Notes: generated by a model from the sequence alone, not told the origin. A stretch of 64,000 bases of DNA from Thermodesulfobacteriaceae bacterium (GCA_049414625.1 JBMSAU010000110.1:13915-77914); one strand, 5' to 3'. Positions 27,738 through 63,112 are shown, numbered from the stretch's first letter. Numbers and translations are program-made.

Positions 27738-29033
27738 CTATTCATTATTTATACTCCCTTCAACGAATTGCTTTGGAATAGCTATTACAAGTCCTATTGG
27801 TAAATCTCTGAAGTAAGTTATTTTATTTGTTTTTTTGCTTTTGACTCTAATTGTTATATTTGCATCAACGCTATCACCATCAAAGTCTCCTCCCAGTGGT
27901 GCACAAGCTAACGGATGTATTTGTATTGTATCTTGATCTGCTATAACTGGTTTTGCTGCTAGCCAAGATGTCTTATGCAAAGCTGGGTCTCTTTTATAAA
28001 CCACTACAGCATCTGGTAAAACATCTTGCTCTAAAACCTTTCTAAAGAAGTTTATCAATTCTTGTGGAAACAGAGTAGGATAATTGGAAATCTTGTTTAT
28101 AAGCTTAGTTATATCATTAACAGCAGGTTTAATCTCTTGTCTTGCAGTTTTTGTTATCTCTATAAATTCTTGTTTGTGTTTTGTTAGTATGCTATTAATT
28201 ATTTGTGGCTTGTATAGTTGCAACAGAGCTGTAAATGGAATAGCAATTTGGTCTATCTCAAGATTTGGATTAGGACTAATAACAGATCTTGCTGTGTAGT
28301 TAACTGTTTTGCTAGCAAGTTGTTCTCTAATAAAACCTGTTTTTGTTCCAAATTGTTCTGCTAACAAATCTATTAGTTTAACGATCAACCTATACAATTT
28401 TGAGCTATTAGCATTACCAACTTCAAAAGTTTTGTTTTGTTCTATTATTTTTGAGTAAACATCTGTTAACGGATGTATTGATATTTTGTTGTCTATCTTT
28501 GAGTAATCTCTCCAACCAGGAGGAAGCACAATTATTTTGTTTGTTATCAAATTCTCAACTTTATTGTTTGATAATTTGATTATCTCATTTATTAACTGAC
28601 CGGATACACTATTCTGTTGAGCAATATACTCAATCAATTTAATCAGTTTGTTTTTCTCAAAGAAGTCTGCGAAGCCTTGCATCAAGATTTTATGATTTGT
28701 GTAGCTAATCTCTTTCTCATCTTCCAAAACTAAATTCCCTTCTTCATCAATTGCTAAAATCCTATCTGGTCTGTTTCTGAATGCTCTGATTGTGGGTAAA
28801 TTATCCAGAATCATCAACACAGGAAACTTAGGGATATATACATTCAACGGTATATATCCCATTTGCTCAAACCATTTTGAACTTTTTCTCTCACCAAATA
28901 GATATTGTGAGTACAATCCATTTATTTGGCTCAGTAACTTTTGTTCATTTAAGTTTGCAGGTAATGGTTCCATAATAGCTGGAGCATTATGCTCCTTAAT
29001 AAATTGTTCCACATTTAGTAGTTCAAAAATCAT
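27738..29033 (-). CDS. multisubunit RNA polymerase beta-prime, N-terminal fragment ending just after the catalytic loop
   Basis: TVNYTARSVISPNPNL..IAIP aligns with VDYSGRSVI..P.L..CGLP. KRDPALHKTSWLAAKPV aligns with NRAPTLHRLGIQAFEPV. IHPLACAPLGGDFDGDS aligns with LHPLVC..YNADFDGDQ. Confidence 0.85.
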   Translation of the reverse strand: MIFELLNVEQFIKEHNAPAIMEPLPANLNEQKLLSQINGLYSQYLFGERKSSKWFEQMGYIPLNVYIPKFPVLMILDNLPTIRAFRNRPDRILAIDEEGNLVLEDEKEISYTNHKILMQGFADFFEKNKLIKLIEYIAQQNSVSGQLINEIIKLSNNKVENLITNKIIVLPPGWRDYSKIDNKISIHPLTDVYSKIIEQNKTFEVGNANSSKLYRLIVKLIDLLAEQFGTKTGFIREQLASKTVNYTARSVISPNPNLEIDQIAIPFTALLQLYKPQIINSILTKHKQEFIEITKTARQEIKPAVNDITKLINKISNYPTLFPQELINFFRKVLEQDVLPDAVVVYKRDPALHKTSWLAAKPVIADQDTIQIHPLACAPLGGDFDGDSVDANITIRVKSKKTNKITYFRDLPIGLVIAIPKQFVEGSINNE

Positions 29034-29066
29034 TGATTTTGATTGCTCAAGAAAACAGCAAAAAAA

Positions 29067-30623: not shown

Positions 30624-30675
30624 AAATGAAAATTTAGATTGGATGCAAAAAAACAAGCCGCCTAAATTTTTTTGT

Positions 30676-31674
30676 ATGCTAGACGTTAGGAATATCTTTA
30701 ACTACTATGTATATAAGCCTATTTATTACAAACGAAATCACATATTAATACGGTGTCCTTTCTGTGGAGACAGTGTTAAAAATGTTATGCATGCTCATTT
30801 GTATATTGAACCAGATTTGATGGTATTTTGGTGTGCAAGATGTTATGAAGGTGGTTCGCTAGCCTATCTGCTAACCAAAATCAGAGACAGATTTTCAATT
30901 GATGTAAATCCGATAATAAACCAATTACGTAATGTTATAGTTAGTAATACTAGCTTACAAAAATCAAAACAAATAAACTTAGATATAACTTACATTGAGA
31001 TGCAAAAACTAAAACAAAAATTAAGTCAAGAATCTATTGCTAGGTATAGAAATGAGCTAGAGTATTACTTCATCAAAAAGCAAATCAATATCAGTGAACA
31101 TGTATTACATCAATTACCGATTGCTATGTATGATGTAGTGTACGATTATTTGCTACCACATAAAGATAGATTGGATAATTCACTAGTCGTATTTACAATC
31201 GGTAGTAGAGTAATTTACAGATATGATTATTTGAGTTTGTTACATAACTTCAAAACAGAAAGAAGGTTTATGAATCTCTATCTAGCAATAGGTAAAAGCT
31301 ATCAAGCTCTACAATATAGTTTGTTTACATTGCTACCATACAACTTTGATAGAAAGTTTTATCAATCATACAATCTAAGCAGAAAAAATTTACTACTTGT
31401 TTCTGAAGGATTAACTGATATGATATTGTATGCAGAACATTTACTAACAAGTGTAGATACACCAATAACTTGCTTAGTGTTAAATGGTAAATGGTATGAA
31501 ATTATAAAAGACTTTGAACCTTTGTTTGACAATATTACAGTAATTGTTGATAATGATGCTGCAACTAAAGCATACATAGCTGGTCTCAAGATAAACAGTA
31601 AACTAAGTTTTGTTATACCAGTTACAGGTAATGATCTTAGAGAGAGTAAAAAATATCTTGAAGTAGAAATTTAA
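30676..31674 (+). CDS. DnaG-like primase (zinc ribbon plus TOPRIM)
   Basis: CPFCGDS...CARCYEGG forms the zinc ribbon. LLVSEGLTDMI and VIVDNDAAT are TOPRIM E..D and DxD elements. The ATG at 30676 is chosen by the exact CTAAATT-N7-ATG (the track starts at 30562). Confidence 0.7.
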   Translation: MLDVRNIFNYYVYKPIYYKRNHILIRCPFCGDSVKNVMHAHLYIEPDLMVFWCARCYEGGSLAYLLTKIRDRFSIDVNPIINQLRNVIVSNTSLQKSKQINLDITYIEMQKLKQKLSQESIARYRNELEYYFIKKQINISEHVLHQLPIAMYDVVYDYLLPHKDRLDNSLVVFTIGSRVIYRYDYLSLLHNFKTERRFMNLYLAIGKSYQALQYSLFTLLPYNFDRKFYQSYNLSRKNLLLVSEGLTDMILYAEHLLTSVDTPITCLVLNGKWYEIIKDFEPLFDNITVIVDNDAATKAYIAGLKINSKLSFVIPVTGNDLRESKKYLEVEI

Positions 31675-31690: not shown

Positions 31691-32584
31691 ATGATAGATT
31701 TACTACAACAAAACTATTCTAAATTGAAAGCAATAGAAGAGTTTAGTTTTAAACATATGCTTAGTTCATCAGCAGCTAAAGACTTTGTTGATAACTTAGT
31801 TGCAGAACAAAACAACCCATATTTAAGCAAGATATACAATCATCTTATAGATAACAACATATTAGTTATAACATATGACAGAGATTTGATTAGCAGAACT
31901 ATAACATACTTTCTTGGTTTAATAGTTAGAGGTCCTATGGTTTTAGGTTTCCATAGTCCAGAGAATAAAAAGATTTATTTGTTGCTAGATAACAACTACA
32001 TAGTATCCAAGCATACAAACCAACATATTAATAAGAGAATTATACAAACATTAATACATGAAACTGTTCATTATTTTGCTACAGTAAAACCAAAAGAATT
32101 TTGTGAACAATTTGATACAATAATACAACGATTCTTCAAACTTGTTTTCTCAAACATAGACCCTAGGTTGGAGTATTATAAAATTGCAGATAGTTATTAT
32201 GATTTGTTATATAACAGTAGAAAACAAATCTTTACAAAAAGTTATTATCAGACTTGGTTTGATACATTTATAAACTATGGGCGTGATGAAGTATTAAATG
32301 CTTTTGTTAAAGATTCACAGTATGATAAGGCATTTAACTACATGATTAAACATCCAGTTTATTTAAAGATTGTTGCTACACTCTATGTGGCAAATGGAAA
32401 AAGAGAAGCTATACCCTATTCTTTCTTTGCTGATATGTATAATGCCTATGTTAAGCTAACAGGTCAGTTAACAATTAACCTATACTATCAGGAGTTATTT
32501 TATCCCGATGAAGTAATATGTGTGCTATCAGAAACAGATAAAAAGAGAGACAATATATTACAAAAGTTGTTACACTTGATCTAA
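31691..32584 (+). CDS. hypothetical protein with an HExxH motif (possible zinc metallopeptidase)
   Basis: LIHETVHYF is the only recognisable element. Confidence 0.45.
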   Translation: MIDLLQQNYSKLKAIEEFSFKHMLSSSAAKDFVDNLVAEQNNPYLSKIYNHLIDNNILVITYDRDLISRTITYFLGLIVRGPMVLGFHSPENKKIYLLLDNNYIVSKHTNQHINKRIIQTLIHETVHYFATVKPKEFCEQFDTIIQRFFKLVFSNIDPRLEYYKIADSYYDLLYNSRKQIFTKSYYQTWFDTFINYGRDEVLNAFVKDSQYDKAFNYMIKHPVYLKIVATLYVANGKREAIPYSFFADMYNAYVKLTGQLTINLYYQELFYPDEVICVLSETDKKRDNILQKLLHLI

Positions 32585-32594
32585 ATTTTTTTGT

Positions 32595-34187
32595 ATGAGT
32601 AATTTGACATATAAACCGACACAGTTATTAACTGCTACTATGTTATGCGTTCCATTTCTAAGATTTAACGATCCAAATAGATTGCAGATGGCTTCCAACC
32701 ATCTAAGACAATCTCTACCTTTGGTTAATGCTGAAATTCCGAGGATAAGAACTGGATTTGAGAATGTAATTGTTAAGAAAGCAGAAAGCTTTTACATTGA
32801 GACAAATACTTTTGAGAAAATTGATGAATTTATAGTTAAAACAGATGAAGGTTTGAAGTTTAATGCTATGTTTTTAAAATATGATGAGAAATTAAAAGTT
32901 GCATACAATCCTTATCATATATGTTTTGTCAGAGATATTGTTAGCGGTGGTTGGTGTCCTGAGCTCAAACTAGGAGTAAATGCTTTAGTTGGTTATATGT
33001 CTTACTATGGTTTCAACTATCAAGATGCCGTAGTAATATCTGAATCTTTTGCTAAAAGACTAAAACATATCGAGAGAAAAGTATTTATTATTAGATTGCC
33101 TGCAAATAGTCAATTAAAACATATCAGTAGTAATGACAATACTATTAGTTTGATACCAATACCAGGTAAAACATACAATACACTAATATCCTATGAGTAT
33201 ATTGAAGCAGGTGTATTACAACGAAAACAAATTAATGTTGACAATTTGCTTGTAGTTGATGTAAGAGTTAAAGCTCTACCAAATTACAGATTACCTGCAT
33301 CAGTAGCAGAATTCATCAAGAAAGCAAAGAAACCATTCAAACTAGCAAAATTAGAAACAGAACCTACACAAAAATATCCTATTGTTATACAAATAATTGG
33401 TTATGTTACCAGAGAAGCAACAATAGGAGATAAACTAACAAATAGACATGGAAACAAAGGAGTCATTGGCTTGATTGTTCCTGATGAAGAAATGCCCAAA
33501 ACAAAAGACGGAAAGATATTAGATATATTGTTCTCTCCTCTTTCTGTTCCATCCAGAATGAACCTAGGCCAATTAATGGAAAATTTGCTTGCAAAAATTG
33601 TCGTTAAGGTTGAACAACAGGTATTAGATTTGCTTAATAGGAATATGAGGGATAAAGCTCAAAAAATGTTGCTAGACTTTTTAAAGAGAGTTGAAAAACG
33701 AAGTTCATTTCATCATTTAATTGACAATGTTTTAACTAAAAGATGGGATTTATTGGAGTATAACCTAACAAAATATGGATTGAGCATCATACAACCACCT
33801 TTTAGTGAATTGAATGCAGAAGAGATAAAACAATTAGCCAAAGACTATAATGTCAAGGAAATAGATTATGTTAGAGTAGACAATTATGATGTTAGCATCA
33901 ATGTGGGTTATCAAACTATATTAAAACTAGAACATTTAGCATCAAGCAAAGTAACAGGAGCAGGCATAACAAACAATGAATACACTAATCCACAAAGAAT
34001 CGGAGAAATGGAAACTTGGAATATCATTGCTCACGATTATGATGAAATTAAGAGATTATTCCGCAGAAGTTATGAATTTGAAAAACTATCCTACTATAGC
34101 GATAAGTTTGGCTTTGATAGTTATATATTCAAACCTGATGTAAATAATGTATATCAAGTTTACAAGAAAGTTTTATTCAATGAGTAA
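32595..34187 (+). CDS. multisubunit RNA polymerase beta, C-terminal fragment
   Basis: [24 protein letters not shown] aligns with [39 protein letters not shown] aligns with [28 protein letters not shown] aligns with PLGVPSRMNIGQ. Exact CTAAATT-N7-ATG lies upstream. Confidence 0.9.
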   Translation: [530 protein letters not shown]

Positions 34188-34214
34188 TCTTTTTTTATTA
34201 CAGCACAAATGTAG

Positions 34215-34880: not shown

Positions 34881-34909
34881 GTATAGCAACTTGTCTAAAT
34901 TTATATTAC

Positions 34910-35317
34910 ATGAGTACTTCTACTTTAAGACAAGGACTCTATACGATTGTCAGAGATCGTGAGAGCGGCAAATTGGGTTTATGCGCGCCATTCACTGTCA
35001 GGAATGTTGTATTACCTCTAAACATTAATCAATATAAAATCCATTTCATAACAAGATTTGACGAAAACAAACATGAAAAAATAATAGAGGTATTTCTGAT
35101 AGATGAAGAATTACAGAAACAATTGAAAAATATGTCTCCATATGGTGTTTATATTATACAAGATATAGAAACAAATTATTATGGCTTAAATGTACCTTTT
35201 TATTTCAGATATGAAACTCCATTTCAATTAAGAGTTGATGGACAAATATACACCATCGCATTCATACGCTATGGTAAGATAAAAGATAAAAAGTACAAAA
35301 AAGTAGCAAGAATATGA
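34910..35317 (+). CDS. hypothetical protein with two internally repeated modules
   Basis: CTAAATT-N8-ATG lies upstream. GLCAPFTVRN...YKIHFITRF parallels GLNVPFYFRY...YTIAFIRY. Confidence 0.6.
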   Translation: MSTSTLRQGLYTIVRDRESGKLGLCAPFTVRNVVLPLNINQYKIHFITRFDENKHEKIIEVFLIDEELQKQLKNMSPYGVYIIQDIETNYYGLNVPFYFRYETPFQLRVDGQIYTIAFIRYGKIKDKKYKKVARI

Positions 35318-39111: not shown

Positions 39112-39135
39112 TATTTTTTTGTTAGCATCAGCTAA

Positions 39136-43281: not shown

Positions 43282-43314
43282 TATTTTTTTATTTGAAAAG
43301 CGATTTCAAATCTA

Positions 43315-43875: not shown

Positions 43876-45210
43876 TCAGAATAATTTGTATGGATCTCTA
43901 TCAGCTTTAATGTTTATTATACTTTCGTATTTAATCCAAAGTGAATTCTTGGGAATAAAGACTATATCATTTCTATCAAACACAAAATCAGATATAAATA
44001 TCATAACATCATTATCATTCATTTTATCCTTTAAATGACTTAACACTTTTTTGGGACTTGTTCCGCCTCTTCCACGAACTTCAATATTTTCAAAATCTTT
44101 TTTGCTTCTTAATATCACTGGACCATAAAAGTCTACATCAAAGTAGTATACTTTTATTCTGCTCATCTTGATTAATTTTGAGAATTTACCAAACACATCC
44201 TCGAGAAATTCTGTTGGAATTGATCCGGATGTATCTATTACTGCATAAAGATATCTGGGATAACCTTTATACATAAATTTTGTTCCCAATAGATCAGGAT
44301 TTAGTTTATTGATCTTCATAGGAGTTCTTCTCACATCATAAATTTTTTTACCATATAAATCATAATCTCTAGCAAATTTTTCAAGATATTTCCTCCAGTC
44401 GAATTGTGAATGTTCTTTTGCTTTGACCAATTCTACAAAATTTCCTCGGTTAGTTCCTACATCTTTAATGCTTTCCAATACTCTATTAATCAAAATGAGT
44501 CTCATATCATCTGTTATATCCGGAGCATCTTGTATCAATTCACCATCTATCATATTGTTAAAATCAAGTGTCATATAATTATAATGTTGTATATTATTTT
44601 CTTGTTTAACAGAACATGTATTGCAATTGCTTTCGCTATTTATAGATGTCCCTTTATCTTCTTTTTGTTGCATTCTTTTGTATATTTCATATGCTAATTG
44701 TTCTATTGTCATTGCTAAAGCATCTTCTATTCTAATACCAAATAGTTCTTCAATGTCATTTAGGAATATATCTTTCTTCAGAAAATCTCCCAAATCTGAA
44801 GATTTGCCTAGTTTAAACATTTTTTTGATATCTTCAATTTTTTCATTTTTGTTAGCATAAATTTTTGTAGTGGTAAATTTATCAATCTTATATGCTAACT
44901 GATATATGATCTCATTAATAAATGCATTAGCGGCCATGTTGTAAATATCAGGTGGAATAATTTCTTTAACATTGTTATATCTCTTTATATGGTTGAAGAT
45001 TATATGCATTGCTCCATGAACTAGATATTTTAATAATGTAGATTCATCCTTTATTACATTTCTATTTACAATGATACAATCATCCTTTACTATTATGGGA
45101 ACACCAGATAATGATGCTTCTGCAATCTTTATGAATTGTAACATATGTCTGATTTCAATCGGAATCTGATTCATTAAATAAATCTTTCTTACTGCGTTTC
45201 TGATATCCAT
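43876..45210 (-). CDS. vWA-domain protein with an N-terminal metallopeptidase-like region (DUF2201-like architecture)
   Basis: AVIDTSGSI is a DxSGS MIDAS motif. The N-terminal VHGAMHIIFNH is His-rich. Exact CTAAATT-N7-ATG lies upstream. Confidence 0.6.
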   Translation of the reverse strand: MDIRNAVRKIYLMNQIPIEIRHMLQFIKIAEASLSGVPIIVKDDCIIVNRNVIKDESTLLKYLVHGAMHIIFNHIKRYNNVKEIIPPDIYNMAANAFINEIIYQLAYKIDKFTTTKIYANKNEKIEDIKKMFKLGKSSDLGDFLKKDIFLNDIEELFGIRIEDALAMTIEQLAYEIYKRMQQKEDKGTSINSESNCNTCSVKQENNIQHYNYMTLDFNNMIDGELIQDAPDITDDMRLILINRVLESIKDVGTNRGNFVELVKAKEHSQFDWRKYLEKFARDYDLYGKKIYDVRRTPMKINKLNPDLLGTKFMYKGYPRYLYAVIDTSGSIPTEFLEDVFGKFSKLIKMSRIKVYYFDVDFYGPVILRSKKDFENIEVRGRGGTSPKKVLSHLKDKMNDNDVMIFISDFVFDRNDIVFIPKNSLWIKYESIINIKADRDPYKLF

Positions 45211-45217
45211 GACATTA

Positions 45218-45254
45218 AATTTAGATTAGTTGTTTCTAGCATCCACTCTAAATT
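45218..45254. promoter_or_regulatory. divergent pair of CTAAATT elements, each exactly 7 nt from its ATG (45210 minus strand, 45262 plus strand)
   Basis: AATTTAG at 45218-45224 and CTAAATT at 45248-45254. This is a representative of the window-wide cassette. Confidence 0.6.
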
Positions 45255-45261
45255 TATAATC

Positions 45262-46941
45262 ATGCTTGGTTTGCTAGAGTTATTGAAACCATCAACATAT
45301 GTGATTGAAGTATCATTCTTCTGTGCATTACAAAATAAAAAGATGCTAGATTTAATCAAAAACATTCTACCCTATTGGAGTATGCTTGCAACTGAGGAGC
45401 AAAAACCTTTATTATCAATGTTAAATACATTTGTGAATAAGGGTATACCAGAACATGATTTCAAACTATCACAGCCATTGGAGTTTTATTACAAACTATT
45501 TGATGTAGCAAATCTCGATGAATTGCAATCAACAATATTGGATAGGTTATATAAAATACAATTTATTGCTAAGGTATATGAGAAGATTCAACTACTCCAG
45601 CATCCAATACATGACTATAATAAAGTTGAAATGCTTGTTAGTGAATTGTTATCTGATCTTAATGAAGTTAGAGATAAAGAGCTAACAGAGAAAATCTTCA
45701 ATGCAAAAGATTTATTAAATGTAACAGAAATATCTGATTTGAAATTGGTTAGTTTGATACCAGAGCTAGATTTAGTATTAGGAGGATTTTATGTTAATAA
45801 TCTTTATCTGTTTGCCGCAGGATTGGGACAGGGTAAATCATTTACATTACTTAACATGGCAGTAGGATTTTCAGTTTTCCTAAAAGCATTTGAAAACTAC
45901 TATAAAGATTGGTATGGTAAAAAACCAGTTGTTTTATACATATCACTGGAAAATACTAGCGTTCAGATCAGGAACAGATTATACACATTACTAAATGATT
46001 GCACATTAACAATACCAAAAGAAAAAAATACTCCTTTGAAACAATTATTCCAAGCTGTGGATAACTTCTATATTATATCTTTATCAGATGAGATAGTGGA
46101 TTATGTTTACATAGAGAATATTGTGTTGTCGATGCAATCAAAAAATATGCATCCAGTTGTCATTGTGTTAGATTATATGGATGAGTTATATGCTCCTGCT
46201 AACATAAGTGAACATAGACATAAGTTAGGTTATAATGCTAGAATGTTAAGAAAGATAGCTATGAATCACAATCTACTAGTTGTATCAGCTACACAGATAA
46301 ACAGAAAAGGCATTGAAGAAGGTAATATATCCATTACACATTTATCAGAATCGATAGAGCATGGTAAAGTAACAGATGCATTGATTGGTTTGGTTCCGGT
46401 AACAATAAACAAAGGTTATGTTATTACAAATCAACCTTTAACCAGAGATATTATTAAAAGCAGTCTAGACAACAAAGCAGATGCAATTGGAATGATAAAT
46501 AGCATGTATCTCAAAGTATTAAAAAATAGACCAAATCTATTAACAGGATTTGGGTATGCAATTAGTAATCAAAGTTTAACAGGATTTAGATCTCTCATAT
46601 ATGGATTGAATTATGAAATCTCAATCTATCTTGTTCCAAGTTTACATTCATATTTAGGAGATGATTATATAACTACAAACTATGATATATTGCATAGCAG
46701 TGTTACAAATAGAATAGCACCATTCGTAAAAAATCTTGATGTTAAGGATTACAGTAAATATCAATACGGATTAGAGTTAATATCAAATCTACTTGGTATT
46801 GATATAAAACAAATAAATGTAAATAATGAAAACATAGAAAATGACTTTGTAGTAAGTAATATCAATCAAAACATAGATGCACTTGATATCATAGATGATT
46901 TTGAAGCATTCGAACAAAAAAGTTTAGATTTAGATATATAG
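45262..46941 (+). CDS. DnaB/RecA-fold replicative helicase
   Basis: Walker A is AAGLGQGKSF. Walker B-like is VIVLDYMDE. SATQINRKG is also present. Exact CTAAATT-N7-ATG lies upstream. Confidence 0.7.
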   Translation: MLGLLELLKPSTYVIEVSFFCALQNKKMLDLIKNILPYWSMLATEEQKPLLSMLNTFVNKGIPEHDFKLSQPLEFYYKLFDVANLDELQSTILDRLYKIQFIAKVYEKIQLLQHPIHDYNKVEMLVSELLSDLNEVRDKELTEKIFNAKDLLNVTEISDLKLVSLIPELDLVLGGFYVNNLYLFAAGLGQGKSFTLLNMAVGFSVFLKAFENYYKDWYGKKPVVLYISLENTSVQIRNRLYTLLNDCTLTIPKEKNTPLKQLFQAVDNFYIISLSDEIVDYVYIENIVLSMQSKNMHPVVIVLDYMDELYAPANISEHRHKLGYNARMLRKIAMNHNLLVVSATQINRKGIEEGNISITHLSESIEHGKVTDALIGLVPVTINKGYVITNQPLTRDIIKSSLDNKADAIGMINSMYLKVLKNRPNLLTGFGYAISNQSLTGFRSLIYGLNYEISIYLVPSLHSYLGDDYITTNYDILHSSVTNRIAPFVKNLDVKDYSKYQYGLELISNLLGIDIKQINVNNENIENDFVVSNINQNIDALDIIDDFEAFEQKSLDLDI

Positions 46942-47008
46942 TTTTTTTGCTATGGAATTATAAAATGTCATAGGAAAAAAGAAAGTTCAAGCAAAGATTT
47001 CACATAGC

Positions 47009-47036
47009 TTGAAAAGGCTTAAGTTAAGCTTAAATT
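47009..47036 (+). promoter_or_regulatory. candidate sigma70-type promoter (TTGAAA, 16-nt spacer, TAAATT) with an embedded palindrome GCTTAAGTTAAGC
   Basis: -35 at 47009-47014 and -10 at 47031-47036. The palindrome lies at 47017-47029. The ATG at 47044 is only 7 nt after the -10. Confidence 0.35.
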
Positions 47037-47043
47037 CATAGAC

Positions 47044-47790
47044 ATGGATACTCTGGAAATTATAGGACAAAGGCTAAAACAAGCACGAGAAACTGTAGGC
47101 TACACGCCAGAAGAGGTCTCACAAAAGCTTGGAATTAGCACGGATGAAATTTTGCTTTTTGAAAGCGGAAGGAAAAGCCCGCCACTTAGCCTTTTGAGAA
47201 AACTTGCCAAACTCTATGGAGTCTTTGATAGCTACTTCTATGGGATAGATAAACCCGAAGGAACCGCCTTTACCCTACTTCTTGATAAAGCCAAAAAACT
47301 CTCTTTTCCTCCTGAAACCATAAGCCAGCTTCACCGCTTTGTTTTTCTGTGTAGGGAGATAGTAAAGCTTAGGCAAAAGCTTGGCATTCCAAAGCCTGAA
47401 ATTCCTCGCCATATAGATAACCAAGAGAACTTGGGAGAACTCTTGGAGAATATGGGTATCCCAGTAATCAGGATGTCCTTAGGCAAAGAACTTTCTTCCG
47501 CCATGGTTTGTGATAAAAGGTTTGGTGCGTTTATCCTCGTGAATTCCGATTGTCCTGACCAAAACCAGCTTATTGCCCATGAGTATGCCCGCATCCTTCA
47601 GGGAGAAAAAATTCATCTAAATGCTAAAGATTGCCCAAAAGCCATGCCACTACAAAGCAGAACTTCACGACCTGTGTCCAAGGTTCTTTGGGAACTTGTT
47701 TTGACTGCGGTAAAACACGGACTGATAAGCACCAGTTATGCATCCGATTTGCTTGAAATAAGTCCTATGGAAATTGAAGAGTTTTCATAA
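47044..47790 (+). CDS. XRE-family HTH regulator fused to an ImmA/IrrE (DUF955)-like domain with a degenerate metal site
   Basis: IGQRLKQARETVGYTPEEVSQKLGISTDEILLFESGRKSP is a Cro/C1 HTH. The C-terminal GAFILVNSD...LIAHEYARIL aligns with ...HELGH..., but the second His is replaced by Arg. Confidence 0.8.
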   Translation: MDTLEIIGQRLKQARETVGYTPEEVSQKLGISTDEILLFESGRKSPPLSLLRKLAKLYGVFDSYFYGIDKPEGTAFTLLLDKAKKLSFPPETISQLHRFVFLCREIVKLRQKLGIPKPEIPRHIDNQENLGELLENMGIPVIRMSLGKELSSAMVCDKRFGAFILVNSDCPDQNQLIAHEYARILQGEKIHLNAKDCPKAMPLQSRTSRPVSKVLWELVLTAVKHGLISTSYASDLLEISPMEIEEFS

Positions 47791-47791
47791 A

Positions 47792-47828
47792 GCCCGCACG
47801 GGCTTCTTATTGGTGCGGGCAATTTTTC
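47792..47828 (+). terminator. rho-independent terminator
   Basis: GCCCGCAC (47792-47799) pairs with GTGCGGGC (47813-47820), followed by AATTTTT. Confidence 0.6.
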
Positions 47829-47980
47829 CTGATGAATTTTGATAAGACTGTAAGCTGATGGTAAGCTGTTAGTTCTATAGCATCGCCCTCCAGATCTATC
47901 ACCCTAACTGGTCCCGTCCCCTCCCTCTCAATGAAAAAAAAGGGAGGGCGGAGAGGGTTTGTTCTATGTTTCTGGTCTCA

Positions 47981-48427
47981 TCAGTCTTCATAGTAGACTC
48001 TGTAGTTATCATCCTCCTGATAACTCCTTAGCAGGCTTTCTGCTTCGTCCTTTGTCAACAGTTCTGCATATTCTCCCTCTTTCAAGGTTGACAGTTTTCC
48101 GATAGGTTTGCCCTTGTCAAAGATTACCACGTATCTCAACTCACTCGCGCTAAAAGCATCACGGGTATTCTCATGGGTCGCCAAGTAGATGTGTGGAGTA
48201 ATCTGATACAACCGAATGATGTCGTGATACCATCCGCCATCATTATGGCGTACATTACCAAATCTCCTCCAGCAATCACACCTCTCGTAGATCGTAACGA
48301 TAGGCGTTAGACTGTTCAAAGATTCCATCCACTGCTCTTCCGTATGATACACGTATAAGCTAATGTCTCCAAGGCGGGAACTCCACCAGAGTTCCCTATC
48401 GTCTGGGTAGTATGCGGTTTGTTGCAT
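47981..48427 (-). CDS. hypothetical acidic protein (island gene)
   Basis: ORF track entry. AGGAGG lies 9 nt upstream of the ATG. CCTAAATT lies 35 nt upstream of the ATG. Confidence 0.65.
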   Translation of the reverse strand: MQQTAYYPDDRELWWSSRLGDISLYVYHTEEQWMESLNSLTPIVTIYERCDCWRRFGNVRHNDGGWYHDIIRLYQITPHIYLATHENTRDAFSASELRYVVIFDKGKPIGKLSTLKEGEYAELLTKDEAESLLRSYQEDDNYRVYYED

Positions 48428-48590
48428 GTTTATTACCTCCTGTGGGTTTTATTTGTTTATTAAATTTAGGTAGATTTTTATTCTGATCTTAAAGTGATTT
48501 TTTTGTTATTGTTTTTTACTAAATAGATAACATGCTAGTTGAGAGTCTCTTATAGCTTCTCTTCATTCCTTTATCTCCTTATTTATAAAT

Positions 48591-48610
48591 GGAGCCGTAG
48601 GAGAGGCTCC
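48591..48610 (-). terminator. hairpin GGAGCC-N8-GGCTCC followed by an A/U-rich tail on the minus strand
   Basis: It lies directly downstream of the stop of 48625-49086. Confidence 0.4.
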
Positions 48611-48624
48611 TGAGGAAGTAAAAG

Positions 48625-49086
48625 TCAATAGACTTTTATCTTTACTGGATTTAAAGCTGTCATTAATCTTGGAAGTAGTTCCTCTAAGTCTTCTTGACTG
48701 CCTACGAAGATATAACCTCCATCAAGCTCTAATTTTGCAATCGTCTCAAGTTCTTGCTTATCCCAAACATACACTGCAAAGTATTCCTCTTCAAATCCAA
48801 CAAAAGCATGGACTATATACAAATCACACATCACAACCCGATAAACATCTATATGGTAGAGAATGTCCGACCCTTCTACTCTAAAAAGTATCTCAAGAAC
48901 CAATGCTGCTCCTTCATTTGCGAAATGATTTTCTTTTGGGTTTTCTTCCACTTCCACCTCATAATCATTAATAGAGTGCACAATCTCAAAATGCTTTCCA
49001 TACGGTGGAACAAACGGAACAAGCACTTCCTTCGTTCTTGCAAAACCTAAGTCTCTTAGTATTTTGTCAAGTTTTTCTTTCGTCAT
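48625..49086 (-). CDS. hypothetical acidic protein (island gene)
   Basis: The ATG at 49084-49086 is preceded by AAGAAGGAGGTGAAGCT. The track extends upstream to 49152. Confidence 0.6.
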   Translation of the reverse strand: MTKEKLDKILRDLGFARTKEVLVPFVPPYGKHFEIVHSINDYEVEVEENPKENHFANEGAALVLEILFRVEGSDILYHIDVYRVVMCDLYIVHAFVGFEEEYFAVYVWDKQELETIAKLELDGGYIFVGSQEDLEELLPRLMTALNPVKIKVY

Positions 49087-49160
49087 AGCTTCACCTCCTT
49101 CTTTAGTGTTTTCGGTTATGTTCTTAAGTTCTTCCATCTTCATGGCAAACACCTCCTTTG

Positions 49161-49619
49161 TTATATTCTCACAACGGGTAGGTTATTCAGTTCTTCCTCA
49201 GCTCTTTCTCTTGCTTCTTCCCACAAAGCGTCCTCTTCATCTTCTCCGTAATAATCACTTAACCTCTCTGCCCATTCTTCTGTAAGCCTCTCATACGCAT
49301 ATTCGTAGGTCTCATACACATTGTTATACCAAAACAGATTCTTCCTACCATACTCGTCGAAATACGGCGGAAACTCAATCTCACGACCTCCAAAATCGTC
49401 AGGAATGAAAACCTTTTTCCCTTCCAATTTCTCAGACAAGAAAACACTCTTTCCTACTCCAGGTGGGATACTCCAAAACTCTTCGTAATCCTCCTCATCT
49501 GTAAATTCTACAATGAGAAAGGTATGAATACGATTAGCCGCATCAATTGTACTCCAGATCACTCTTAGATCCCTCATAGCTTCTCCTCCTTCTTGGGTTA
49601 GCTGTTGCTTCTTCCTCAT
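49161..49619 (-). CDS. hypothetical acidic, aromatic-rich protein (island gene)
   Basis: Two Shine-Dalgarno-preceded ATGs are possible: 49617-49619 (TAGGAGGTGAAGAC) and 49575-49577 (AAGAAGGAGGAGAAGCT). The track extends to 49679. Confidence 0.6.
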   Translation of the reverse strand: MRKKQQLTQEGGEAMRDLRVIWSTIDAANRIHTFLIVEFTDEEDYEEFWSIPPGVGKSVFLSEKLEGKKVFIPDDFGGREIEFPPYFDEYGRKNLFWYNNVYETYEYAYERLTEEWAERLSDYYGEDEEDALWEEARERAEEELNNLPVVRI

Positions 49620-49800
49620 GTCTTCACCTCCTAAAGTTTTATTTATATATTTAATTTTATACAACTTTATAAAAATCAAGAGGGCATATTATGATTTGCG
49701 TCATGTCCTCATTCCCTTTGAATATGCGTGTAGAACAGAGAACTCAGTGTTAGGTCTTTGTATCTTTTCCAGATAAGCTTTAGAAAGTCCCTTATTTGAC

Positions 49801-49860
49801 GGGACACCCTTCACAGTATTGAAAATCAACCTGTTCAGAAGGGTAGGGTGTCCCATTTTT
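49801..49860 (+). terminator. long hairpin GGGACACCCTTC...GAAGGGTAGGGTGTCCC followed by T7 (plus-strand orientation)
   Basis: Stems 49801-49812 and 49838-49854; T-run at 49856-49862. Confidence 0.45.
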
Positions 49861-49937
49861 TTGTCAAATTATAGGAATACAATAAGTTCAATAACAAAAA
49901 AAGAGGGAGGAAGAGGGCAATTATGAAGAGCTTCTAA

Positions 49938-51674: not shown

Positions 51675-51816
51675 AACGTTCTTCTGCTAAAAAGTTGTGA
51701 GTAAACAACTTTAAATATTAATGCAAAAAATTTTTTACAAGTATGCTAAAGATAATACTGTAAGAAAACAAACATTTTATTATTGGATGCTATCATTTAA
51801 CACACCTCCGCAAGAA

Positions 51817-51889: not shown

Positions 51890-51995
51890 AATGTCCCGAT
51901 AATCAAGGGACCTAGGGCTGGAGCGGCCCGAAGTTAAGCCTGTGGAGAGGCGAAAGCCTCTATGAAGCAGGAAGCTCCACCTATTGGAGCGGCTC
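51890..51995 (+). ncRNA. candidate small structured RNA transcribed from the 51857-51885 promoter
   Basis: A 5' hairpin GTCCC-N9-GGGAC is followed by a G+C-rich element of about 85 nt. Within it, GGGCTGGAGC pairs with GCTCCACCT, CCTG pairs with CAGG, and AGAGGC-GAAA-GCCTCT forms a GNRA-capped stem. No credible ORF is present. Confidence 0.35.
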
Positions 51996-53316
51996 ACTCG
52001 ATATTGTTCTCAAATTGCCAAACAAGATAGTTAACTGATCCAACTTTCTTTGATTCTGGTGTTACAATAGGGTCCAAGTATCCCAACATATCTGTTACAA
52101 GTCTTATTTTGTGACTTAATCTCTTCATTGCAAATTTATGAGCATATGTAGCTTTTAACTGTAACATAACTTCTGATATAGGATTATGTATTTTATCCTC
52201 TACATATTCAACTTGCATTATCTTATACAAAATGGATAGAGATGTTGAATGCTTTCTGGGCAATTTTCGTGTTCTAATTCTCTCATACACCAAGTGCATT
52301 AGTTGTCTAACCAATGGATGCAATAAGAATGTTTTGAATCTTACTGTTTTGCTTTTTAGTGAGCTATACAAACCACAATTTTTTATATAATTGTAGAAGT
52401 CATTGCTTGGAACAAATGTAAATAGAAAGTAATAGGGATCTTTAAACTCCTGTCTAACCAATGGATCAAATATAGCACTTATCTCTCCATATAATAATGT
52501 CATTATCTCAAAAGAATGTTTACCCATAAGTCTTTCTAATAACCTACTTCCACCGTAGTCCTTGAATGATTTTGCAAATCTTCTCCTATAATTGCTTTCA
52601 TATGTTACATCTACAATTAATTGTTTATTGACTGATGTATCTGTATACACAATAGATGTTTCCGTTTCTTGTATTGTTATATATTTAACTTTCTTTCCTT
52701 TTGTTACAGTAGTTACTATGTTTGATTGATTATTATCTAGCTCTTGCATATCAACTTGAAAGCCAGTTTGTTGTAAAACCATATACAACAAATCTAGCAA
52801 GGATAAATTACTTTCCATTAAACTTTCATCATTCTTGAGCAAATACAATATCAAAAAGTTCAATATAGGTAATGTTTTATGTTTTGATTCATATAAGATT
52901 GGTTTTGTTTCATCTAAAATATTTTTAAACACTACTTTCCTATACAGATTAGATAATTTTGCATCCATACTCTCTGTTCCAAATCTATCCAAGAACTTAT
53001 CTGCGATTGAGTAAATAAATACATATCGTTGTCCATTAACTATTATGTAGTTTCCAATAAACCTAGGAATGAATGTTTTATAATTACAAATTGCTCCATC
53101 CTTTTTGTCCTTCAAACTATATTTGATAGTATAAACAGATACTAATCCGTCTGTTGACATGAGATCTTCTTCCTCAATTTGTAAATCAATTAATTCAGCA
53201 TCAATCAGATCACAAAACCAAATTATGGTATTTTTAACATCTTCTGTAATATTGTTTAATACTTGTTTGCGATATGAAATGGGTTTACTGTCTATGTTTA
53301 GGTTTATGAAATACAT
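51994..53316 (-). CDS. multisubunit RNA polymerase beta, N-terminal fragment
   Basis: FIGNYIIVNGQRYVFIYS aligns with FIINGxERVIVSQ. The C-terminal LDPIVTPESKKVGSVNYL aligns with ICPIETPEGPNIGLINSL. The ATG at 53314-53316 is chosen by the exact CTAAATT-N7-ATG (the track extends to 53400). Confidence 0.75.
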   Translation of the reverse strand: MYFINLNIDSKPISYRKQVLNNITEDVKNTIIWFCDLIDAELIDLQIEEEDLMSTDGLVSVYTIKYSLKDKKDGAICNYKTFIPRFIGNYIIVNGQRYVFIYSIADKFLDRFGTESMDAKLSNLYRKVVFKNILDETKPILYESKHKTLPILNFLILYLLKNDESLMESNLSLLDLLYMVLQQTGFQVDMQELDNNQSNIVTTVTKGKKVKYITIQETETSIVYTDTSVNKQLIVDVTYESNYRRRFAKSFKDYGGSRLLERLMGKHSFEIMTLLYGEISAIFDPLVRQEFKDPYYFLFTFVPSNDFYNYIKNCGLYSSLKSKTVRFKTFLLHPLVRQLMHLVYERIRTRKLPRKHSTSLSILYKIMQVEYVEDKIHNPISEVMLQLKATYAHKFAMKRLSHKIRLVTDMLGYLDPIVTPESKKVGSVNYLVWQFENNIE

Positions 53317-53365
53317 GATAGTAAATTTAGTATGGGTGCTCAAAAAAAATGTTTTATTTTTTTTG

Positions 53366-53992
53366 TTATAGTAATATATCATCTGAATCTGATGATACAT
53401 TTACAGTCACATCAGATAGATCCAAATCCAATTCATCTTCTATTGTATCTGATTTATCAATTTCGGATATTTTCTTTTTAGATGGTGCTTCTGTTGTATA
53501 TTTATTGTATAGTTCCCAGAATCTTGTAGCATCTCTTTCAATTCTTTTTAATGTGACACCTTTTCTCATTAGTTCTTCAATTGCATTAATAACCCTATCA
53601 ATCTCCTCTTTGACATTTTCCAATACTTCATCATTTATCTCATTGTCCATTTTTGTTCCAATTTCTCTTAGATATAATGCATGATTTTCTTTTATCACTG
53701 CTATGTATGGAGATGTTTTCAATCCTGTAGCTGATGTCAATCTGTTTGAATAAATCAATGCTACTGTATATCCATTCGCATCATACAATTTGGTTCCTAG
53801 TAGCAAATTCTCTCTTTTCTTAATCACAATTACGTGATCTTTGGATATTGGCTCAATTATTTTGAATTTTTTATTTGCTGGAAATCCGACTAAATTGCTA
53901 CCTACTAACGTACAATAATATATTTGTTCATCATATTTAATTGGTTTGAATACACTTGATAATTTTTCTATGGAGATTACTCTGACCTTCAT
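53366..53992 (-). CDS. hypothetical protein
   Basis: The ATG at 53990-53992 is chosen by the exact CTAAATT-N7-ATG (the track extends to a TTG at 54010). Confidence 0.6.
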   Translation of the reverse strand: MKVRVISIEKLSSVFKPIKYDEQIYYCTLVGSNLVGFPANKKFKIIEPISKDHVIVIKKRENLLLGTKLYDANGYTVALIYSNRLTSATGLKTSPYIAVIKENHALYLREIGTKMDNEINDEVLENVKEEIDRVINAIEELMRKGVTLKRIERDATRFWELYNKYTTEAPSKKKISEIDKSDTIEDELDLDLSDVTVNVSSDSDDILL

Positions 53993-54022
53993 GTCTATAA
54001 ATTTAGACAAGTTGTAAAAAAC

Positions 54023-55180
54023 TCAAAACCAATCAATTTCATTTGAAGTATCTTTAACAGGAGATCTACCCAAATACATAAACAAATACAAAACTAAATG
54101 CTTTGCTATGTTTGAATACGTTTGCAATGAATACTTACTTAATATATCCTCTCTAATCTTAGGTATTGATATTGTTACACTATATAATTTATTTATCTGA
54201 TTCATATTGGTAGCATCCAATGGAAATCCGACTACACTTATGATTTTATTTACAATCATTTTTAATTCATCATAACTCAATTTTTGTAATTGTTGAATGT
54301 ATTGTTTGAATGTTTGTTTTGATATTTTGTTTCCGAGCATCTCGATTATAGTATCAACTAAATCGTCTATTGGTTCAGGTTCCATTTTGAAGTTAATTAT
54401 TGCATCATGATAATACCTACTGTAATCCCGTTCAGCAATCTCATCTTTAGTAATTTTCTTCTCTTTTGCTATATGTATTAGATTGTCTTTCAATCTGTTA
54501 GCATAGTTATTAACTCTTGCTCGCAAATAACCCGTCCACACATTATGTATTTTTTTCGGATTGGATTCTCTATCAACTAATATTAATTGAGCCTTTCTTT
54601 CTGCAATTGACTCTAATAATCCTGATATGGATGAGAAATTGCTTGGATGTAATAAGTTAGATCTGGGTAATAGTCTTCTGGCTTGTTCAAGATCATGCTT
54701 GTTAAGTATTACAACAGACTTAGTTACTTGAACTATAAACATGATAGCAGAAAACATAAAGTAAAGATTACGAAGTATGGCTAGCTTATCTATAACTGGA
54801 TTGTTATCACAATCTACTAACGTAACAACATCAGCATGTAAGACAATAGCCGCAAGATGCCATCTGTTCATATAGTAAATTGGATTAGATAAACTTGGAT
54901 CAAGAGTTTTATGAAGTTTGAATACTAATTCCTTTAATTCCTTTTGAACTATGCTGGTATTCGTATGCATCTTATCAAACAATAGAGGACGAAATTTTTC
55001 TACACTGATAACATTTAAGTTGTCAACGTATGGTCTTATTTGAGTTGTAATTCTATCGGTTGTACGATACAAAGTTAGCATATAATCTTCAAAATTTTGA
55101 AAACCAAAATAGCGCACAATATGCTCAATTAGTTCTTTTTGTTGATTATTTAACCAGTGAACATATTTACAGTTCGTCAT
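54023..55180 (-). CDS. hypothetical protein
   Basis: ORF track entry. CTAAATT-N8-ATG lies upstream, within the palindrome AGCTAAATTTAGCT. Confidence 0.6.
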   Translation of the reverse strand: MTNCKYVHWLNNQQKELIEHIVRYFGFQNFEDYMLTLYRTTDRITTQIRPYVDNLNVISVEKFRPLLFDKMHTNTSIVQKELKELVFKLHKTLDPSLSNPIYYMNRWHLAAIVLHADVVTLVDCDNNPVIDKLAILRNLYFMFSAIMFIVQVTKSVVILNKHDLEQARRLLPRSNLLHPSNFSSISGLLESIAERKAQLILVDRESNPKKIHNVWTGYLRARVNNYANRLKDNLIHIAKEKKITKDEIAERDYSRYYHDAIINFKMEPEPIDDLVDTIIEMLGNKISKQTFKQYIQQLQKLSYDELKMIVNKIISVVGFPLDATNMNQINKLYSVTISIPKIREDILSKYSLQTYSNIAKHLVLYLFMYLGRSPVKDTSNEIDWF

Positions 55181-55235
55181 AATAGCTAAATTTAGCTGCG
55201 TTGTGTATTACTAATACATAAACAGTTGTGAACTA

Positions 55236-57034: not shown

Positions 57035-57055
57035 TTTTTTTTACTAACAAAAAAA

Positions 57056-63096: not shown

Positions 63097-63112
63097 AGCT
63101 AAATTTTAAAAC

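Follow-up and report, generated by a model that had tools for sequence, protein, structure and literature searches.

The stretch of DNA analysed here, called the window in the following, comprises 64,000 nucleotides of a contig filed under a Thermodesulfobacteriaceae bacterium, and it covers about half of the ~129-kb genome of a large hot-spring phage, with 69 genes. At positions 45208-45264, a gene for a DUF2201 metallopeptidase/VWA protein and a gene for a DnaB-like helicase diverge from each other, and the 51-bp gap between their start codons at 45210 and 45262 is filled by two copies of one sequence element. This element, which we term class B, includes the heptamer CTAAATT at a distance of seven nucleotides from the ATG. 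Its copies and variants in the window are the following.

623-647, minus strand: class B element of the form CAATATAC-CTAAATTT-N6-ATG, ATG 625; the gene runs off the window
3027-3051, minus strand: one-mismatch variant CTAAACTT-N6-ATG (CTAAACT), ATG 3029
5323-5347, minus strand: exact match to CTAAATT-N7-ATG, PWM score lowest of all, before a 15-codon ORF antisense in gene 4676-5932
5933-5957, plus strand: class B element, gene for the N-terminal half of PolB (UDG and exonuclease), ATG 5955
7798-7822, plus strand: class B element, 67-codon ORF, ATG 7820; not listed before
12174-12198, plus strand: class B element, ATG 12196
12596-12620, plus strand: class B element, 51-codon ORF, ATG 12618; not listed before
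12767-12791, plus strand: class B element, ATG 12789
15158-15182, minus strand: class B element, ATG 15160; a Shine-Dalgarno (SD) sequence leads cistron 13280-14227 downstream of this gene
15245-15269, plus strand: class B element, 5'-3' exonuclease-like gene, ATG 15267
19701-19725, minus strand: class B element with the top PWM score, ATG 19703
22121-22145, minus strand: class B element, ATG 22123
22617-22641, minus strand: class B element, ATG 22619
24883-24907, minus strand: class B element, QueD/PTPS gene, ATG 24885
26329-26353, minus strand: class B element, ATG 26331
26388-26412, plus strand: one-mismatch variant CTAAATAT-N6-ATG (CTAAATA, 26410), STIV B116-like gene
27632-27656, minus strand: class B element, ATG 27634
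30621-30645, minus strand: class B element, gene for the C-terminal half of PolB, ATG 30623; divergent partner of 30676
30654-30678, plus strand: class B element, primase-like gene, ATG 30676
32573-32597, plus strand: class B element, gene for the C-terminal fragment of RNAP beta, ATG 32595
34887-34912, plus strand: N8 version (CTAAATTT-N7-ATG), ATG 34910
45208-45232, minus strand: class B element, DUF2201 metallopeptidase/VWA gene, ATG 45210
45240-45264, plus strand: class B element, DnaB-like helicase gene, ATG 45262
53314-53338, minus strand: class B element, gene for a 440-aa protein (putative N-terminal fragment of RNAP beta), ATG 53316
53990-54014, minus strand: class B element, ATG 53992
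55178-55203, minus strand: N8 version, ATG 55180
63091-63115, plus strand: class B element, ATG 63113
63557-63581, plus strand: class B element, ATG 63579
63805-63829, plus strand: class B element, GTP cyclohydrolase I gene (complete in contig L189), ATG 63827

A preliminary description had reported CTAAATT exactly 7 nt before the ATG of 22 genes, and all of these are among the 25 exact matches found on both strands of the window. The proposal was said there to fall if shuffled sequence did as well, but the comparison supports the motif: dinucleotide-preserving shuffles contain 0.74 matches on average (sd 0.77, maximum 3), and 0 of 100 shuffles reached 25. The three additional matches belong to the start codons 7820 (+), 12618 (+) and 5325 (-), the last of which is probably a chance occurrence. 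CTAAATT itself occurs 44 times, with an ATG at N7 in 25 cases, at N8 in two and at any other spacing in at most two, and in none of the 44 copies does a GTG or TTG follow at N7. The expected total is 32.4 +/- 5.6, and the 19 copies that are uncoupled to an ATG are within chance. The N8 versions at 34910 and 55180 and the one-mismatch variants at 3029 and 26410 were found as described, and at the latter site the sister strain L002 possesses a perfect CTAAATTT. A further variant at 3075, however, has the form CTAAAATT-N5 and not N6 as described, and is part of a TnpB insertion that is specific to the strain. In 21 of 24 cases, no other in-frame ATG lies between the upstream stop and the motif ATG. 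Gene callers often misplace starts because SD sequences are missing, and with the box the true start codons can be assigned and small genes become visible; RNAP beta has been called as 515 aa and as 530 aa.

While CTAAATT-N7-ATG is real, the element is longer than had been described, and a second class of box, AGCW at -14..-12, had been overlooked. The full class B element reads CA(A)(C)-N4-CTAAATTT-(T-rich N5)-Y-ATG, with a conserved signal that spans 17 bases and is separated from the start codon by six bases. CTAAATTT is conserved at each of its eight positions and invariant in 25 copies. The -35 position upstream of CTAAATTT has zero information content, a TG extension is also absent, and no promoter-like conservation is found farther upstream of the element. 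The comparison of TAAATT with a -10 hexamer holds in so far as it fits TAnnnT, but with eight conserved positions, the additional CA(A)(C) and neither -35 nor TG, it is not a plain -10. All 24 PWM matches that reach 15 bits have an ATG behind them, in one case a base farther out, and the window contains no strong orphan copy of this score without ATG. A pyrimidine is found at -1 in 21 of 24 box copies in the window (p = 0.0003) and in 5 of 5 N8 cases, compared to 13 of 27 class A genes, as those with the second box are called here. The box-to-ATG spacer is T-biased and not merely AT-rich, whereas class A spacers are A-rich. Eight further box copies lie just outside the window in a sister contig. 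A scan of IMG/VR with the 17-mer CTAAATTTTTTTGTATG gave multiple matches in the two sister contigs only, an Rfam search gave no family, and a literature search on the motif gave nothing relevant. Exact-protein look-ups for genes at the ends of the window yielded no record.

The box genes all belong to DNA metabolism, with RNAP beta in addition. They encode both PolB halves, primase, DnaB, exonuclease, a RecA-like protein and an AAA ATPase, and on the nucleotide side the RNR small subunit, QueD and GTP cyclohydrolase I (FolE). Class A, with AGC(A/T) at -14..-12 before the ATG, covers most of the remaining genes, including those for the major capsid, baseplate and SLT-like proteins, and the tail sheath gene has AGC at -15. 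The SLT-like match is sub-threshold. The CTAAATTT box is absent from the genes for capsid, baseplate and sheath. The class B element has (A/G)CAA as its upstream half, which is similar to AGCA of class A with a shift of 10 bp. The restriction of the compact class B element to one functional gene class supports its reading as a promoter, and this class would be expressed early.

SD sequences had been described as limited to the internally coupled genes 14227 and 62440 and to a foreign island. Indeed, SD-like sequences occur at only five of the 69 genes (14227, 62440, 48427, 49143 and 49619), two of which follow an upstream gene at a distance of 2-3 nt, while the other three are part of a strain-specific insertion, and none of the box genes among the 69 possesses one. 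This restriction of SD sequences to internal cistrons fits leaderless 5'-proximal cistrons. CTAAATTT as such is probably not an SD-type translation signal, as it has no CCUCC complementarity and keeps a rigid spacing, unlike an SD signal with its variable 5-9 nt; true GGAGG sites are present elsewhere in the same genome. The island was also the basis of an argument for a promoter, as CTAAATT lies there ahead of an AGGAGG and 35 nt upstream of the ATG of gene 47981-48427. This argument has to be given up: the copy scores low, has no upstream half, would be expected by chance, and is part of a 2.9-kb insertion that is missing from a sister strain.

Divergent box/box pairs have start codons 51-52 bp apart, which corresponds to two elements back to back, and 7 of 24 box copies are found in divergent intergenic regions without an upstream same-strand gene. 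At junctions of same-strand class B genes, the box is nearly always present, and the overlap with the upstream stop codon that had been described before is often seen. Sigma-70-like promoters are not enriched in the window (121 versus 137.6 expected), and together with the absence of a -35 and a TG this speaks against a sigma-70-type host promoter. Hairpin terminators are not enriched in the window either (5 versus 4.5 expected), and hairpin-less T-runs are found after genes. An archaeal TATA/BRE was rejected, as there is no conserved element at about -27, and in divergent pairs with 20-23 bp between them this position falls inside the opposite gene. No tRNA genes were found in the window.

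The arrangement TAAATT(A/T)-N6/7-ATG is shared by diverged uncultured lineages with 35-55% RNAP beta identity and a GC content of 24-42%. Nine N7 cases were counted in L004 and ten in L007, and the box precedes the RNAP beta orthologue in five lineages (L004, L006, L007, L086 and L087) and the orthologue of the 440-aa gene in L004 and L007. The upstream GCAA half is also kept in relatives, as is the pyrimidine at -1 (17 of 19). The box is retained in 5 of 5 class B orthologues and present in 0 of 10 class A orthologues, and no comparable arrangement was found in ~75 more distant RNAP-encoding phage loci. Between the window and L001/L002, box changes (3/136) can be set against 3.6% changes in other intergenic DNA, but these strains are 96-98% identical and thus too close for the comparison to be informative on box conservation. 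L003 was discarded as unrelated, being a contig of 48% GC with a fused 2086-aa RNAP and two CTAAATTT copies inside ORFs. A near-DNA search of a phage database with the window gave no match; there are no cultured relatives, and top protein matches are 24-36% identical. Binning is unreliable with respect to the host and was set aside, as near-identical contigs were binned as Sulfurihydrogenibium sp. and as Candidatus Aenigmatarchaeota.

The phage carries split bacterial-type beta and beta' RNAP subunit genes, and two fragments are candidate subunits of the enzyme that would read the box.

32595-34187, plus strand: C-terminal fragment of RNAP beta, class B box (Rpb2 domain 6 match, 5e-39)
27738-29033, minus strand: N-terminal fragment of RNAP beta' with the DFDGD catalytic motif, class A box (Rpb1 domain 2 match, 1.4e-25)

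The beta C-fragment matches the AR9 nvRNAP chain 7s00_C (6e-26). A search for paralogous RNAP fragments in ~85 kb revealed just one beta C- and one beta' N-fragment, all others being orthologues. The two belong to opposite classes, with the CTAAATTT box before beta and AGCW before beta'. A two-polymerase scheme is thus hypothetical for this phage, and it may have a single RNAP that is unable to transcribe its own early genes. Best matches gave a contradictory assignment to virion or non-virion enzymes (AR9 g270 is non-virion, and a Madawaska match is annotated 'viral'). The 440-aa protein starting at 53316 may be an N-terminal fragment of RNAP beta, an assignment taken just from a TPE..VG..N motif at its C-terminus and from the position of its gene next to beta in relatives; PDB sequence searches with the conserved 440-aa and 273-aa families gave nothing.

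Late promoters of poxviruses and giant viruses carry TAAAT(G) at the ATG, early transcription ends at T5NT, and the RNAP is a multisubunit enzyme. The phage resembles them in that genes would be served one by one by a short promoter at the ATG with a TAAAT core, in the virus-encoded multisubunit RNAP, and in the hairpin-less T-runs after genes. However, these are eukaryotic viruses, in which transcription starts inside TAAAT and a poly(A) head is added, and the likeness is considered convergent and implies no homology. The T4 late promoter TATAAATA, which depends on gp55/gp33, is likewise a -10-only AT-rich box of 8 nt that shares TAAAT and lacks a -35, but its targets are late structural genes whose leaders contain SD sequences, and it is read by host core RNAP. 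The phage box, in contrast, abuts the ATG of replication rather than structural genes, and Pfam scans found no gp55 or sigma domain in the window (about half of the genome), so that a T4-type late promoter was rejected. A further parallel is seen in the promoters of leaderless mRNAs from Deinococcus, Mycobacterium, Streptomyces and many archaea, in which a -10 TAnnnT lies 6-7 nt before the start codon. They share a TAnnnT-like box ending 7 nt before an AUG, the exclusive use of AUG, and 5'-proximal genes without SD next to tightly coupled downstream cistrons with SD (PMC4007540), but they are degenerate and read by host sigma-A holoenzyme or archaeal RNAP, whereas the phage box has 8 invariant nucleotides, a second half at -22 to -19 and a class-specific distribution.

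Another known system is that of the early promoters read by the virion RNAP of jumbo phages. In AR9 the early promoter is AAATATATATTAT-(6N)-G+1 (PMC5312081), and in phiKZ and phiR1-37 the transcription start also lies 6 nt after an extended AT-rich box, with a T-rich part upstream of -19 in phiKZ (PMC5312081, PMC7598289, PMC8244752). Common features are split beta/beta' RNAP genes in the phage, a conserved AT-rich box before many non-structural genes, a box-to-start distance of 6 nt, which in our case is predicted from the geometry, a T-rich sequence that is often present farther upstream, and a very short motif at the late genes instead. Different are the sequence of the box, the start point, which would here coincide with the start codon, the presence of a separate box copy at nearly every gene, and the genome size of ~129 kb instead of >200 kb; the virion RNAP is here putative. 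The 5' UTRs of phiKZ are typically 31-40 nt long and no leaderless transcript is found (PMC8244752), while those of AR9 have 26-491 nt (PMC5312081).

Based on this, we think that the box probably represents a class of phage-RNAP promoters giving leaderless mRNAs, as the preliminary description had proposed. The evidence that speaks for it is indirect and consists of the coupling to ATG, the conservation, the class restriction, the tight divergent pairs, the -1 pyrimidine, the geometry of AR9 and phiKZ, and SD sequences at internal cistrons only. Against it speak the lack of leaderless transcripts in the RNAP-encoding jumbo phages characterised so far and the different box classes of beta and beta'. 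CA(A)(C)-N4-CTAAATTT-N6-ATG would act as a DNA-level promoter of replication, recombination and nucleotide-metabolism genes, in which the AT-rich box would span -14 to -7 and CA(A)(C) would lie farther out, at -22 to -19. It would be read by phage-specified machinery, namely the split multisubunit RNAP, by analogy a virion-type enzyme. As the box-6N-+1 geometry is that of the mapped early promoters of AR9, phiKZ and phiR1-37, transcription is predicted to start six bases past the box on the A of ATG, which the class-specific pyrimidine at -1 fits, and each box gene would give one leaderless (5'-AUG) mRNA that is translated without SD. DNA-level action, exact start point, identity of the polymerase and early timing are all part of what we infer here.

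The main alternative, though an unlikely one, is an element at the mRNA level, in which transcription starts upstream, for example 11-13 nt after (A/G)CAA and inside or just before CTAAATTT, so that the box and a U-rich spacer form a fixed leader of 10-14 nt that serves as translational operator or enhancer. T4 RegA sites and S1-dependent AU-rich leaders are models for this, and the regulon of replication genes resembles that of RegA. The rigid spacing to AUG and the exclusive use of AUG would suit such an element, the T-biased spacer could equally reflect a U-rich transcribed leader, and the likeness of the upstream half to a class A box shifted by 10 bp makes a start inside the box, with a leader of 10-12 nt, conceivable. 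Against it, the class-specific Y(-1)/A(+1) signature fits a start site, conservation reaches to -22 and thus beyond such a leader, Pfam scans of most of the 69 genes, except the smallest, revealed no RegA-like domain, and the box-(6N)-+1 geometry is that of mapped vRNAP promoters (PMC5312081). Even so, the leader would have at most 14 nt and no SD.

The leaderless mRNAs would remain if host RNAP read a -10-only box, either with a phage sigma-like factor, as T4 gp55 on TATAAATA, or directly, as for TAnnnT without -35 in Deinococcus and Mycobacterium. The fit of TAAATT to TAnnnT, the distance to ATG, which equals that of the -10 boxes of leaderless genes (PMC4007540), and the single beta and beta' fragments in different motif classes point in this direction. 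We nevertheless give it a low probability, as the eight conserved positions plus CA(A)(C) far exceed what sigma-70 needs at -10, and as the missing -35 and TG, the lack of enrichment of sigma-70-like sites and the failure to find a sigma or gp55-like domain in the window all speak against it. Very improbable in our view is an RNA-processing site at which an endonuclease cuts polycistronic transcripts just upstream of each cistron. The box at nearly all same-strand class B junctions, often over the upstream stop codon, would agree with this, but the seven copies in divergent regions have no upstream same-strand gene to be cut from, and promoters are more often confined to genes of one function; the absence of promoter-like conservation farther upstream also counts against processing.

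With the promoter reading, the most likely leaderless arrangement before the replication genes is one that has not been reported for this kind of phage. Should transcription start on the ATG, the lineage would be the first among large phages with an RNAP of their own to have a leaderless early/replication regulon. The element would represent a 17-bp promoter that has a fixed, predicted start point and is read by a non-canonical multisubunit RNAP, probably of a thermophilic setting, which makes it attractive for work on transcription in vitro and for the design of expression systems that are orthogonal and thermostable. With the two-box system, metagenomic sequence may also suffice to assign genes to temporal classes. 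As a tentative extension, it is possible that in this clade of uncultured large split-RNAP phages nearly every gene is a monocistronic unit, with a promoter abutting the ATG, an mRNA that is leaderless or has a leader of up to 14 nt, and an oligo-T terminator without hairpin a few bases behind the stop, and that TAAATTW-(6N)-ATG at DNA-metabolism genes and GCW at about -13 at virion genes set the temporal programme. If this is true, read-through would not affect expression, owing to leaderless translation, and a tailed phage of hot springs and other habitats would follow a poxvirus-like or archaeal-like logic of gene expression.

On both strands of the window, the arrangement CTAAATT-N7-ATG occurs 25 times, as compared to 0.74 ± 0.77 times in 100 dinucleotide-preserving shuffles, none of which contained more than three. 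All 22 start codons for which the preliminary description had reported CTAAATT at this spacing are among the 25 exact matches, and three were added:

ATG 7820, plus strand: exact CTAAATT-N7-ATG, 67 codons
ATG 12618, plus strand: exact CTAAATT-N7-ATG, 51 codons
ATG 5325, minus strand: only 15 codons, antisense within a gene, lowest motif score

For these last reasons, ATG 5325 is treated as a chance copy. The heptamer as such is present 44 times (32.4 ± 5.6 expected), with an ATG at N7 in 25 copies, at N8 in two, and at any other spacing in at most two, and none of the 44 is followed by GTG or TTG at N7. The 19 uncoupled copies match the prediction from composition. Past the upstream stop, 21 of the 24 ATGs linked to the motif come first in frame, which explains why the motif, as had been claimed, corrects over-long starts; in the mechanically derived ORF list these are TTG codons.

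The heptamer is thereby confirmed, but the true element is longer. In the site alignment, CTAAATTT is invariant beyond CTAAATT alone, and a second conserved half is found eight bases upstream of it (C 19/25, A 24/25, A 19/25, C 14/25). In the spacer, T predominates and the last base, immediately 5' of the ATG, is a pyrimidine. The full element reads CA(A)(C)-N4-CTAAATTT-N5-Y-ATG, covering -22 to -1; genes with this element are referred to as class B. In a position-weight scan of the window with a cut-off of 15 bits, all 24 hits had an ATG downstream at the fixed spacing, with one extra base in a single case, and there were no strong orphan copies. Just past the right end of the window, the sister-strain contig L189 (11400-20000) carries eight more perfect elements in series, most of them with a T7 run and ACAA/ACAC upstream, preceding genes for GTP cyclohydrolase I, an AAA ATPase, the ribonucleotide reductase small subunit, a RecA-like protein and unknowns. 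Genome-wide, there are probably 40-50 copies.

The window belongs to the genome of a large tailed phage of about 30% GC, for which no close cultured relative was found. It encodes a primase, a DnaB-like helicase, an SNF2 helicase, a gp23-like capsid protein, a tail sheath and a baseplate protein, together with the following split enzymes:

27738-29033: beta' N-terminal fragment of a bacterial-type multisubunit RNA polymerase (RNAP)
32595-34187: beta C-terminal fragment of a bacterial-type multisubunit RNAP
5955-7775, plus strand: family-B DNA polymerase, UDG-exonuclease half, class B box
29067-30623, minus strand: family-B DNA polymerase, polymerase half, class B box

The two DNA polymerase halves lie 21 kb apart on opposite strands, with a uracil-DNA-glycosylase domain fused to the N-half. 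Depending on the gene caller, beta is annotated as a 515-aa or a 530-aa version, because its start has no Shine-Dalgarno (SD) sequence. Two IMG/VR contigs are 96-98% identical to the window, one of which is 129 kb long and circularly permuted relative to it. Near-identical contigs (L088, JAJHRL010000070.1; P0001, MBX0310201.1) have been deposited in a Candidatus Aenigmatarchaeota MAG and in a MAG of the unrelated Sulfurihydrogenibium sp., a double placement that likely reflects mis-binning by low GC; a hot spring is the probable environment.

A second box marks many of the remaining genes. In the map of 69 genes, of which 24 are class B, AGC (mostly AGCA or AGCT) stands exactly 14, 13 or 12 nt upstream of the start codon in 27 of the 45 others, with about 1.5 expected. 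These class A boxes have an A-rich spacer without pyrimidine bias at -1, and in relatives they take the form of a T-run plus GC(A/T). Examples are:

51675-51688, minus strand: before the capsid gene
29034-29047, minus strand: before beta'
17045-17064: between divergent genes

The two boxes divide the genes by function, as surveyed in the window and in the adjoining 9 kb of the sister contig. The class B genes of recognizable function encode both DNA polymerase halves, primase, DnaB, 5'-3' exonuclease, QueD, GTP cyclohydrolase I, the small subunit of ribonucleotide reductase, a RecA-like recombinase, an AAA ATPase, the DUF2201 metallopeptidase/VWA protein, RNAP beta and a 440-aa protein, and no virion gene over this range is in class B. 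Class A includes the major capsid protein, a baseplate protein, an SLT-like protein, a PDDEXK nuclease and the beta' fragment; in front of the tail sheath gene, the AGC is at -15. This separation of DNA metabolism from virion genes is what would be expected of temporal promoter classes.

51994-53316, minus strand: 440-aa class B protein (in diverged relatives: L004 8654-9970, L007 7223-8539)

The 440-aa protein has no match in Pfam, PHROG or PDB, its gene immediately precedes that of the beta C-fragment in relatives, and its end (...TPETKKVGSVN...) resembles the beta motif 'ETPEG..IGL'. The protein probably corresponds to the N-terminal fragment of beta, moved 20 kb away in this phage. Of the class B genes listed above, QueD/PTPS (24292-24885, minus strand) and GTP cyclohydrolase I (63827-64000, plus strand; complete copy in L189 11412-12017) together suggest a 7-deazaguanine (preQ0-type) DNA modification pathway. 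A STIV B116-like protein (26410-26745, plus strand; Pfam 4e-27), whose family is known to occur in viruses infecting thermophilic archaea, is preceded by CTAAATAT in the window, where the sister strain has a perfect CTAAATTT. A TnpB-like gene (3075-4643; IS200/IS605 accessory, RNA-guided nuclease family) lies on a ~1.6-kb insertion (3055-4663) that does not occur in the 129-kb sister contig and whose insertion point directly precedes the AGCA box belonging to gene 4676.

Conventional signals are scarce. SD-like sequences precede only five of the 69 genes, and in agreement with the preliminary description these are two coupled genes (14227 and 62440, each 2-3 nt behind the upstream gene) and three genes of unknown function in the GC-richer island 46959-49869 (~38% GC), which also encodes an HTH/XRE protein (47044-47790). 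Therefore, SD sequences are usable in this host, yet avoided at 5'-proximal cistrons. The island is an insertion, as the sister strain joins 46958 straight to 49870 and a GGAAT repeat is present at both junctions. Its CTAAATT copy had been taken as evidence for a promoter function, a point that has to be given up: CCTAAATT, 35 nt before an SD-led gene, has no upstream half, scores 11.8 bits versus a median of 21.4, is within chance expectation, and is located in a strain-specific insertion. Neither sigma-70-type promoters nor hairpin terminators are enriched in the window. In its intergenic DNA, runs of 6-8 T show an enrichment of about 12-fold, and 32 of 40 follow a same-strand stop codon at a distance of 4-44 nt (often 4-8 nt) without a hairpin, making them candidate oligo-T terminators, for example:

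34189-34196, 39113-39120, 43283-43290, 46943-46949 and 57036-57043, plus strand: T-runs

Five diverged lineages were reached through homologues of the beta fragment:

L006: beta identity 55%, GC 36%
L004/L005: beta identity 42%, GC 27%
L007/L008: beta identity 43%, GC 24%
L086: beta identity 42%, GC 31.5%
L087: beta identity 35%, GC 41.6%

In all five, TAAATT(A) or TAAATAC stands upstream of the beta orthologue, followed by six (sometimes seven) bases and the ATG. L004 and L007 contain 9-10 box sites each, with an N7 spike as in the window. The upstream half in the relatives is GCAA, nine to ten bases 5' of the box and often preceded by a T-run, and 17 of 19 sites have a pyrimidine before the ATG. 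Orthologues keep their class, with the box at 5/5 class B and 0/10 class A genes, and no comparable arrangement was seen in about 75 loci of more distant RNAP-encoding phages (25-30% identity), some of which have an ordinary SD. The arrangement is thus a trait conserved within one clade and no accident of composition.

The divergent gene pairs bear on the function of the boxes. Between two class B genes, 51-52 bp separate the ATGs, corresponding to two 23-bp elements back to back, and class A pairs share a palindromic AGCT with just 20-46 bp between ATGs (20-23 bp at minimum). As these gaps are filled by the elements, and as the aligned window sites show no conservation further upstream, the transcription start signals must lie within these few bases, so that a leader can have no more than about 14 nt. 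Multisubunit RNAPs prefer Y(-1)R(+1), which fits the pyrimidine at -1 in class B (21/24, p = 0.0003; N8 cases 5/5), as compared to 13/27 in class A. The geometry CTAAATTT-(6N)-ATG is exactly that of the AR9 virion-RNAP early promoter, AAATATATATTAT-(6N)-G+1 (PMC5312081). Early promoters of phage virion RNAPs are generally ~10-nt AT-rich boxes centered near -10 (PMC7598289), with an additional T-rich part upstream of -19 in phiKZ (PMC8244752). By this analogy, transcription would start on the A of the ATG, six bases after CTAAATTT, and class B mRNAs would be leaderless, with their 5' end at the AUG. Class B also resembles leaderless systems, where the start codon is exclusively AUG and SD sequences are confined to distal cistrons (PMC4007540 and general knowledge), and the class A box, short as it is, resembles the tiny motifs of late promoters in AR9 (AACA-(6N)-T-A/G) and phiKZ (TATG).

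A start inside the box is a tenable alternative, which would give a fixed 10-12-nt U-rich leader serving as translational operator or enhancer; in its favor, the class B spacer is T-biased more than merely AT-rich, and the upstream half resembles a class A box displaced by 10 bp. The box could be read by a virion RNAP, a non-virion RNAP or the host RNAP together with a phage factor. In the roughly 85 kb covered, just a single beta and a single beta' fragment were found, in different box classes, and their best matches assign them contradictorily to virion and non-virion enzymes.

Returning to the leaderless promoter reading, the split RNAP genes and the long, conserved AT-rich box that precedes many non-structural genes are features of the phiKZ-like phage-RNAP early promoter family, and by analogy we think that the class B element probably works like, and is a member of, this family. 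Leaders are 31-40 nt in phiKZ, where no leaderless transcript was found (PMC8244752), and 26-491 nt in AR9 (PMC5312081), whereas in the present clade as a whole almost all class B genes have the box right next to their ATG. It is this placement of the box that is new, the promoter family itself being already known from phiKZ-like phages.
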